Of a stretch of DNA of 64,000 nt, positions 61,758-62,383 are shown in pieces; within the stretch, counting starts at the first letter, position 1, and each line of letters starts with the position of its first letter. The position numbers and the translations under genes are program-made. The notes under the pieces were generated by a model. That model saw nothing but the letters and a program-made list of their open reading frames with translations. It made no database searches and was not told the origin of the DNA. Source of the DNA: an uncultured Alphaproteobacteria bacterium (GTDB lineage: Bacteria > Pseudomonadota > Alphaproteobacteria > RF32 > CAG-239); NCBI GenBank assembly GCA_902464275.1, contig CABQIK010000002.1, forward strand, positions 14 to 64,013, read 5' to 3'.

Positions 61758-62307
61758 TGGTGCCGGTTATGTGACTTGAACACACGACCCACGCTATTTA
61801 GAATGCGGCGAGGATAAAAATTGCTCCGGTGGAGCAATTTTTGACGCAGCGGGATAGTTTGTCGCCAAGGCGGCAAGCGACAGCGCAGGAGCCGCGGCGT
61901 TACAAACAGACTGACCGCAGCGAGTTAGCGATTGACCGCAGGGCAGAGCTTACGAGCCAGAGCTAGCAACGCAAAAATCCCCGTTGCTTTAGCGGCGGGG
62001 ATTTTTACTTAAAAGGTATCTCTTAAAAAAACTGGTGCCGGTTATGTGACTTGAACACACGACCCACGCCATTTAGAATGCGGCGAGGATAAAAATTGCT
62101 CCGGTGGAGCAATTTTTGACGCAGCGGGATAGTTTGTCGCCAAGGCGGCAAGCGACAGCGCAGGAGCCGCGGCGTTACAAACAGACTGACCGCAGCGAGT
62201 TAGCGATTGACCGCAGGGCAGAGCTTACGAGCCAGAGCTAGCAACGCAAAAATCCCCGTTGCTTTAGCGGCGGGGATTTTTACTTAAAAGGTATCTCTTA
62301 AAAAAAC
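61758..62307. repeat. tandem direct repeat, 275-bp unit x2 (61758-62032, 62033-62307). Each unit begins with a 38-nt exact copy, plus ~15 nt degenerate, of the 3' half of the adjacent tRNA-Thr
   Basis: Period measured from tggtgccgg at 61758, 62033 and 62308. Units differ by only a few substitutions. The non-coding body carries two hairpin+T-run structures (ttgctccggtggagcaa+ttttt; aaaatccccg...cggggatttt). Confidence 0.85.
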
Positions 62308-62383
62308 TGGTGCCGGTTATGTGACTTGAACACACGACCCACGCATTACGAATGCGTTGCTCTACCAACTGAGCTAAACCGGC
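62308..62383 (-). tRNA. tRNA-Thr (anticodon CGT)
   Basis: Reverse complement GCCGGTTTAGCTCAGTTGGTAGAGCAACGCATTCGTAATGCGTGGGTCGTGTGTTCAAGTCACATAACCGGCACCA. Folds as acceptor GCCGGTT/AACCGGC, D-arm GCTC-AGTTGGTA-GAGC, anticodon arm ACGCA-TTCGTAA-TGCGT, T-arm GTGTG-TTCAAGT-CACAT. Confidence 0.9.

Follow-up and report, generated by a model that had tools for sequence, protein, structure and literature searches.

Tandem non-coding repeats with an rtT-like layout behind two tRNA genes of an uncultured gut alphaproteobacterium

What accounts for the DNA behind the tRNA-Thr(CGT) gene of an uncultured Alphaproteobacteria bacterium, where an intact tRNA is followed by two tandem non-coding units that each carry a copy of the tRNA's 3' part? 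We addressed this question in a stretch of 64,000 nucleotides (contig CABQIK010000002.1 of assembly GCA_902464275.1, positions 14 to 64,013; hereafter, the window), in which an initial annotation, made from the sequence alone, had seen the attL/attR architecture of tyrosine-integrase elements, to be explained by either a miniature integrative or satellite element mobilised in trans or a small structured RNA gene that hitchhikes on tRNA att sites. The repeats at this tRNA, together with a related array behind tRNA-Val(GAC), are a new, sequence-unrelated variant of the layout known from the tyrT/tyrV locus of Escherichia coli (the rtT repeats). The explanation that we favour, with about even confidence, is an rtT-like family of tRNA-distal repeats in which arrays are resized by unequal homologous recombination and the core is probably a small structured RNA.

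The arrays behind tRNA-Thr and tRNA-Val

ARAGORN and Rfam both place tRNA-Thr(CGT) at 62308-62383 on the minus strand (69.9 bits with the Rfam tRNA model), and the sequence of this gene is 100% identical across all related loci compared. Tandem Repeats Finder delimits the array at 61754-62356 (period 275, 2.2 copies, 98% matches), and repeat search and blastn resolve it into two 275-nt units, 62033-62307 and 61758-62032, that are 99.3% identical to each other; by the same two methods, the 3' part of tRNA-Thr occurs in three copies at the locus, in the gene itself and once per unit. The initial description of a complete tRNA followed by an element and a tRNA 3'-half, iterated twice, is confirmed. 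The exact 3'-half had been put at 38 nt, which is essentially right: the block common to tRNA-Thr and each unit measures 37 nt (GCGTGGG...CACCA), and the degenerate anticodon arm said to accompany it is present (CGCATTC-TAAAT-GGCG in the unit vs. CGCATTC-GTAAT-GCG in tRNA-Thr). In tRNA orientation, each unit consists of a 24-nt flank, hairpin 1, a GC-rich core, hairpin 2, ATCCTC with the pseudo-anticodon arm, and the 37-nt tRNA tail with CCA. The two hairpins, each set between A and T runs, correspond to the two hairpin plus T-run motifs seen at the outset. The GC content of the core is 61.7%, vs. 41.8% for the whole window. No conserved open reading frame (ORF) was found between the tRNA-Thr copies, as expected of the non-coding cargo first proposed, and Rfam searches of the whole window at the gathering threshold and of both array loci at E <= 10 returned tRNAs and no other RNA family. 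The array is no artefact of assembly: two positions distinguish one unit from the other, and metagenome contigs of independent origin hold 1, 2 or more of them. Its features are listed below, where numbers with the prefix L denote related loci.

62308..62383, minus strand: tRNA-Thr(CGT), intact head of the array (ARAGORN, Rfam)
62033..62307, minus strand: Thr repeat unit 1, 275 nt (Tandem Repeats Finder, repeat search, blastn); an identical unit is present in L001, L005, L007 and L008
61758..62032, minus strand: Thr repeat unit 2, 275 nt, 99.3% identical to unit 1; an identical unit is present in L004
62284..62307, repeated at 62009-62032, minus strand: native 3' flank of tRNA-Thr, 24 nt, GTTTTTTTAAGAGATACCTTTTAA; also found behind the tRNA in the repeat-free L031 and L018
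62246..62283, second copy 61971-62008, minus strand: hairpin 1, the terminator-like hairpin of tRNA-Thr itself (inverted repeats, folds); kept at the empty site L031
62118..62245, second copy 61843-61970, minus strand: GC-rich Thr core (composition, folds)
62209-62219 and 62120-62197, minus strand: substructures of the Thr core, a small hairpin and a long imperfect hairpin, respectively (folds)
62091..62117, second copy 61816-61842, minus strand: hairpin 2, AAAAATTGCTCC-ACC-GGAGCAATTTTT, terminator-like both ways (inverted repeat)
62070..62090, second copy 61795-61815, minus strand: ATCCTC and degenerate anticodon arm GCCGCATTCTAAATG (alignment to tRNA-Thr)
62033..62069, minus strand: copy 1 of the tRNA-Thr 3' part, 37 nt exact, with CCA end (repeat search, blastn)
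61758..61794, minus strand: copy 2 of the tRNA-Thr 3' part, 37 nt exact, end of the array (repeat search, blastn)
61728..61757, minus strand: flank past the array with a further hairpin and T-run, shared with the convergent ORF 60965-61687 (terminator scan)

Hairpin 1 pairs fully, with G.U pairs, on the plus strand only. The flank at 61728-61757 also follows the last tRNA copy in L001, L013 and L019.

The only other tRNA gene of the window, tRNA-Val(GAC) at 38127-38203 on the plus strand, has the same layout (blastn of the tRNA against the window). It is followed by a 55-nt flank with a palindromic terminator, a 292-nt non-coding stretch, and a repeat of its own last 26 nt together with the same 55-nt flank, forming a direct repeat of 81 nt at a spacing of 373-374 (period 373, 1.2 copies). 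The initial annotation had held that a repeat confined to one locus would leave a mobile-element interpretation unsupported; the arrangement is not confined to one locus, and the core behind tRNA-Val is homologous to that behind tRNA-Thr. The features of the second array are as follows.

38127..38203, plus strand: tRNA-Val(GAC), head of the second array (ARAGORN, Rfam)
38204..38258, duplicated at 38577-38632, plus strand: 3' flank of tRNA-Val with palindromic terminator (repeat search, terminator scan)
38259..38550, plus strand: Val cargo, 292 nt, non-coding; the part resembling the Thr core lies at about 38265-38404, inverted with respect to its own tRNA, and the equivalent of hairpin 2 at 38281-38310
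38251..38264, plus strand: perfect 14-nt inverted copy of tRNA-Val positions 44-57 (repeat search)
38551..38576, plus strand: copy of the last 26 nt of tRNA-Val, comprising the 3' part of the T-arm, the acceptor strand and CCA (blastn, 26/26)

Comparison of the Val cargo with the Thr unit by local alignment gave z-scores of 5.3-8.2, with 0/1000 dinucleotide shuffles scoring as high, in one orientation only; scores in the opposite orientation were unremarkable. The two cores are homologous and colinear over about 210 nt despite a sequence divergence of ~50%, and at the Val locus the core is inverted relative to the tRNA. The features in common are, in order towards hairpin 2, CTAACT..CGGTCA, a GUUUGU/ACAAAC stem, a GC-rich interior, AAAAA-hairpin-TTTTT and ATCCTC, after which both units continue with TCTAA and a sense-oriented piece of the cognate tRNA. 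The GUUUGU/ACAAAC stem reaches 8 bp in the Val unit via matched insertions, and hairpin 2 of the Val unit has a wholly different stem sequence, with full pairing kept and the same A5/T5 flanks. The tRNA-Val piece at 38251-38264 occupies the same position relative to the Val core as the tRNA-Thr copy does relative to the Thr core. A pattern designed post hoc, GAGGAWAAAAA..TTTTT..ACAAA, occurs at three places only in the 64 kb, in the Thr and Val units. A hidden Markov model built from the Thr units alone missed the Val copy, and homology was established instead by the shuffle-controlled pairwise alignment; a search of 437 kb of related loci by nhmmer with a combined Thr and Val profile added no member to the family, and none was found elsewhere in the window. 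The tRNA-Val terminator itself (38199-38240) is an extended palindrome in which the CACCA end of the tRNA is paired with a downstream TTGGTG, and GAACCTGC in the tRNA-Val flank is complementary to the T-stem.

Copy number, empty sites and boundaries in relatives

The product of dinB, 3 kb off the array, shares 93-99% amino-acid identity with human-gut metagenome-assembled genomes labelled uncultured Alphaproteobacteria. Among contigs that encode an identical 208-aa neighbour protein, we identified one Thr unit in L001, L003 and L004 and at least two, with scaffold gaps, in L002 and L005, while the window itself holds two Thr units and one Val unit. Other species of the clade, in which the 208-aa protein is 64-82% identical, hold the Thr unit at the same tRNA, once in L011, L014 and L025, twice in L013, and in 2 or more copies in L028. 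The Val array consists of one 373-bp unit in L033, L036, L037 and L038 and of two in L035. Copy-number variation, for which the initial annotation had proposed to look, is thereby found among strains at both arrays. Several contigs end at the repeat, and seven further assemblies break exactly at the start of the repeated tRNA 3' part.

An empty Thr site is present in L031, where the tRNA is followed by the 24-nt flank, hairpin 1, 15 nt and then unrelated DNA, without core, hairpin 2 or tRNA copy. Since this repeat-free locus still has them, the first ~60-75 nt of the Thr 'element' are the tRNA's own trailer and terminator. Of the cargo of ~225 bp first described, this part is native; the core and hairpin 2 are extra in occupied genomes, as are the pseudo-anticodon arm and the second tRNA tail with its trailer. 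At the Val locus, no unit follows the tRNA in L042, from a more distant species. At the syntenic Val site, another more distant relative (L048, 2500-3010) has a tandem pair of complete tRNA-Val genes, both of them equipped with a terminator. The exact empty-site pattern for the window's own Thr flank had no match in JGI metagenomes.

The ends of the duplicated segments differ between genomes. The last, partial Thr unit ends 4 nt past CCA in the window, L001 and L013, ~25-30 nt past it in L011, L028 and L025, and 60 nt past it in L014, and the duplicated segment at the Val locus ends 55 nt past CCA. The block identical to the tRNA likewise varies, from 29 nt in L025 to 49 nt in L028, where it includes the true anticodon loop. 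No constant att core, with the same boundaries at every occupied site, was found; because the segment ends vary among genomes, the boundaries are not a fixed att core, and their variability is more in keeping with homologous recombination than with a crossover of 7 bp.

The E. coli rtT repeats and the favoured explanation

Egan and Landy are said to have described in 1978 '178 bp repeated 3.14 times' behind tyrT-tyrV, Rossi et al. reportedly described transcription of the E. coli repeat in 1981, and Bosl and Kersten, whose paper PMC3318445 and PMC4986893 cite, reportedly described the RtT RNA in 1991; to our knowledge, the origin and function of the rtT repeats have remained unexplained since 1978. 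As a control, we analysed the E. coli tyrT-tyrV locus (NC_000913, 1285800-1288000) with the same tools as the Thr and Val arrays. Tandem Repeats Finder reports 3.1 copies at a period of 178; the repeat overlaps tyrV by the final 19 nt of the gene, and the array ends with the tRNA tail and about 6 nt. Each E. coli unit is matched by the Rfam family RF00391 (RtT) with 133-137 bits, the first unit bears annotations for rttR and for the small ORF tpr, and across 5,426 complete E. coli genomes the narI-purU span shifts in 178-bp steps, with 1-4 RtT annotations. One of the repeat units in the tyrT operon encodes rttR, which is freed from tRNA operon transcripts (PMC3318445, PMC4986893), and a mobilome study found the coverage of the rtT region raised under stress (bioRxiv 10.1101/2024.07.17.603846).

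The Thr and Val arrays resemble the rtT array in that a tRNA is followed by head-to-tail non-coding units, each with the tRNA 3' end including CCA, and in that the array is closed by a partial unit of tRNA tail and a few nucleotides (3.1 copies in K-12; 2.2 and 1.2 here). The body of the unit is GC-rich and hairpin-forming in both cases, copy number changes by whole units between strains, and related sequences are found at more than one tRNA locus. Conversely, the units have no sequence or covariance-model similarity to rtT; the copied tRNA part is 37 nt (Thr) and 26 nt (Val) long vs. 19 nt in E. coli, and in the Thr and Val arrays the copy includes the tRNA's terminator; each unit here has two terminator-like hairpins; and they belong to an alphaproteobacterium of the gut that is uncultured. 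Pairwise alignment with the E. coli RtT unit did not score robustly above shuffles, and homology to it was rejected. Judged by their sequences, the Thr and Val units are rtT-like in layout and dynamics and are not members of the RF00391 RNA family.

Comparison between species shows that the Thr core is 96-98% identical, as against about 80% for the adjacent intergenic DNA, 70-93% for neighbouring genes and 70-78% for the 208-aa gene. In L014, identity is 97.8% in the core vs. 90.1% in the left part of the same unit, and the two units of L013 differ from each other in the left part and loops only. The fold of the Thr unit has a z-score of -5.3, much of which comes from the two terminator-like hairpins, and one compensatory change is found in the small hairpin (GCCC-AAA-GGGC vs. 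GCCT-GTC-AGGC). Covariation within the Thr type was discarded as a test of structure, the sequences being too uniform to be informative. At the Thr locus, the strand that has hairpin 2 and a U-run at its 3' end has the sense of the tRNA; at the Val locus, it is the antisense strand. Of the two strands, it alone has a terminator conserved in both members of the family, and we consider it the more likely to be transcribed. A perfect TATAAT lies ~230 nt upstream of hairpin 2 on the antisense strand of the Val locus. A sigma-70-like site, TTGAAC-17-TAGAAT, is found on the plus strand of the Thr units (61776-61804 and 62051-62079), where it is aimed into the core and formed by the antisense T-loop and the mutated anticodon loop of the tRNA copies.

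In the favoured explanation, each unit is made of two parts: the duplicated tRNA 3' part with the tRNA's downstream flank and terminator, and the conserved GC-rich, hairpin-forming non-coding core, closed by the second terminator-like hairpin. A first '1.x-copy' state may have arisen by a rare event, either a tandem tRNA copy farther downstream decayed until its 3' part was left, or DNA bearing the tRNA tail and flank recombined in the Campbell manner. Since then, the array would grow and shrink as direct repeats of 37-100 nt undergo ordinary unequal homologous recombination or slip against each other during replication, and homologous exchange anchored in the invariant tRNA would transfer it between lineages. 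A transcript of the core would be tRNA sense at the Thr locus, fed by read-through of a leaky hairpin 1, and antisense at the Val locus, where the TATAAT lies upstream of hairpin 2; the predicted product is a structured RNA of ~150-230 nt. The second of the initial alternatives, a gene for a small structured RNA, survives as a putative part of the best explanation.

Several observations weigh against this explanation. In the Thr type, 59 of the 62 proposed pairs are invariant and one pair covaries, and variable sites are weakly enriched at unpaired positions (p = 0.03-0.09, stem-versus-loop test). High conservation of the core could stem from recombination and not from selection. Divergence is mosaic across tRNA-Thr (58308-59507 vs. 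62522-63148; L011, L013, L028), with 97-98% nucleotide identity in dinB and 72-77% in the 208-aa gene; because the two sides differ in this way, the region of tRNA and array behaves as a recombination boundary. L009, a near-identical strain, bears the small-hairpin variant of another species. No conserved promoter for the core was found on either strand, and in L013 the -10 box of the promoter-like site on the plus strand of the Thr unit reads TCGAAT. Strand signals conflict, in that hairpin 1 pairs better on the plus strand, whereas one G.U-preserving change in the long hairpin favours the minus strand, and the presence of two terminator-like hairpins argues against simple co-transcription with the tRNA. 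As to the parallel with E. coli, RF00391 had no match at E <= 10 in 61600-62520 and 38100-38700, and the Val core is inverted relative to its tRNA, whereas rtT is in the same sense.

Alternative explanations, neighbouring genes and meaning

We consider it unlikely that the units are a decayed or non-autonomous integrative element, similar to a cis-mobilizable element (CIME) or a 'bare attP', integrated site-specifically at the tRNA 3' end and moved in trans by an integrase encoded elsewhere. Such an element would have kept both attP arms (flank and hairpin 1; core and hairpin 2), and its units would have been multiplied by repeated integration or accretion. In line with it, direct repeats that include the tRNA 3' end bracket every unit at both loci with the tRNA kept intact, unoccupied target sites exist in relatives (L031 for Thr and, in a more distant species, L042 for Val), copy number varies, the unit size of 275 or 373 bp is close to that of a complete attP, related cores lie at two different tRNAs, and the similarity to the tRNA reaches into the degenerate anticodon arm, as in many attP sites. 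CIMEs that have kept attL and attR and lost int are documented in tandem arrays at tRNA genes (PMC5704250), and they and tandem accretion (PMC5704250, PMC6323972) resemble the present arrays in their direct-repeat bounds with a tRNA end, their lack of integrase and transfer genes, and their tandem arrangement. CIMEs are, however, kb-sized remnants of integrative and conjugative or integrative and mobilizable elements with precise att sites and recognisable parents, whereas the units here measure 275-373 bp and have no constant end (4-60 nt past CCA at Thr, 55 nt at Val). At the Val locus, core and tRNA run in opposite relative orientation to those at the Thr locus, and E. coli has the same anatomy without an integrase.

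Nor does either array have an integrase in it or beside it. The sole recombinase in the 64 kb, a 313-aa protein encoded at 40543-41484 that the initial annotation had suggested testing on the site, is XerC-like (317 bits with TIGR02224 vs. a cut-off of 335), and blastn found no further copy of tRNA-Val beyond it; with this housekeeping-XerC-like score and no tRNA-Val copy past it, it was rejected as the responsible integrase. Scans of viral contigs with the tRNA tail, the core and the L020 variant gave no match, nor did distant blastn against plasmid and phage records, and a 24-mer of the unit is absent from 185,579 representative genomes. No parent element with the same ends was found in viral contigs, phage and plasmid records or species-representative genomes, a set that did not include complete genomes of the clade. 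Two variant loci were considered as larger parents and rejected. In L009 (1-931), a Thr unit is cut after 111 nt and runs into a gene for an AAA_14/DUF4143 ATPase; an 897-nt stretch is 88% identical to L041, a contig of an apparently unrelated organism, which suggests, from sequence similarity, that the AAA_14 stretch is a horizontally acquired cassette, and it holds no integrase. In L020, the different sequence after CCA is a copy, since diverged, of the flank and terminator native to the tRNA. A miniature inverted-repeat or insertion-sequence-derived element was likewise rejected, with no terminal inverted repeats at the unit ends and no other copies in the window or the 437 kb of related loci. 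The initial reading of an iterated attL/attR of a tyrosine-integrase element is not supported, given the variable boundaries, the inverted Val core, the lack of an adjoining integrase and the lack of a parent, and the evidence is mostly against an integrase footprint.

Also rather improbable is that the arrays are functionless debris, in which a tandem tRNA copy truncated at its 5' end left spacer, tail and terminator to be amplified and deleted neutrally by unequal crossing-over; the hairpins would be mere terminators, and conservation would mean that lineages have exchanged the DNA recently and that the intact tRNA has taken part in gene conversion. The likeness to truncated tandem tRNA pseudogenes is clear in that the copies look 5'-truncated, with similarity stopping in the anticodon stem (Thr) or the T-stem (Val), and in that complete tandem tRNA-Val genes occupy the syntenic site of a relative (L048). 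One tRNA copy in L028 retains the true anticodon loop and is identical to the tRNA over 49 nt, divergence around the tRNA is mosaic, covariation is nearly absent, and the array can be lost entirely (L031, L018). Truncated pseudogenes alone, however, explain neither a homologous core at two tRNAs nor its inversion at one of them. That core persists at both loci despite ~50% divergence, with hairpin 2 and the GUUUGU/ACAAAC stem upheld by different sequences; the contrast of core and left part in L014, the confinement of the L013 differences to the left part and loops, and a strongly GC-rich core in an AT-rich genome also speak against debris.

Less probable again, and to be regarded as speculative, is that the module of core and tRNA tail is a self-propagating, non-autonomous element, which would seed tRNA 3' ends via unit-length circles or tRNA-end-dependent copying and adopt the tail and terminator of its host tRNA. 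A small basic peptide, from a 45-aa Arg-rich ORF on the plus strand (61829-61966 and 62104-62241) that would be analogous to E. coli tpr, is scarcely credible: the ORF is present in both Thr units and tpr is annotated within the E. coli repeat, but its GTG start lies inside the stem of hairpin 2 without a ribosome-binding site, Arg-rich ORFs arise by chance in GC-rich DNA, and offsetting 1-nt indels in the Val unit shift the frame with nucleotide similarity kept and the peptide not conserved, frame shifts between family members on account of which this reading was rejected.

The permuted two-piece transfer-messenger RNA (tmRNA) of alphaproteobacteria is similar in having a tRNA-like 3' piece with CCA upstream of a structured RNA body. 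A tmRNA was rejected, with none reported by ARAGORN and an Rfam tmRNA_permuted score of 12.8 bits vs. a threshold of 47 bits. Inspection of the Thr unit by eye, without a pattern search, showed nothing that could pair as a 5' acceptor strand (GCCGGUU, allowing for wobble); neither a tag reading frame nor a G3:U70 pair was seen.

Beside the Thr array lie two tandem paralogous ORFs, 60131-60886 (251 aa) and 60965-61687 (240 aa), which have no Pfam or NCBIfam match. Each is preceded by a conserved 96-nt leader (60035-60130 and 60886-60981), of which further copies are present elsewhere in related loci, and the paralogues vary in number and length between strains; they look like a hypervariable gene family. 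A 32-nt inverted repeat (60169-60200/60225-60256, 84% complementary, 24 nt apart) lies within the start of ORF 60131-60886. Farther off, in L001 (11836-12627, ~5.3-6.1 kb past the right end of the window), small ORFs and a DUF2924 gene come after a tRNA-Met, probably at the border of a prophage or island, and no Thr- or Val-type unit is present there.

The Thr and Val arrays are a second family with the 'n plus a fraction' anatomy and the strain-level copy-number variation of rtT, unrelated to it in sequence, in a distant class and at two tRNAs. This suggests that the layout is not a curiosity of E. coli and is either a recurrent outcome of recombination at tRNA 3' ends and terminators or the result of a function that the arrays share as parts of tRNA operon transcripts. 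Metagenome assemblies break at arrays of this kind, exactly within the tRNA, and because the arrays mimic attL/attR footprints, island finders that use direct repeats at tRNA ends can mis-call them. If the module were indeed self-propagating, this family and E. coli rtT would be two independent cases of a general, undescribed process of repeat-building behind tRNA genes, for which the core could be a cis-acting site or a required small RNA.

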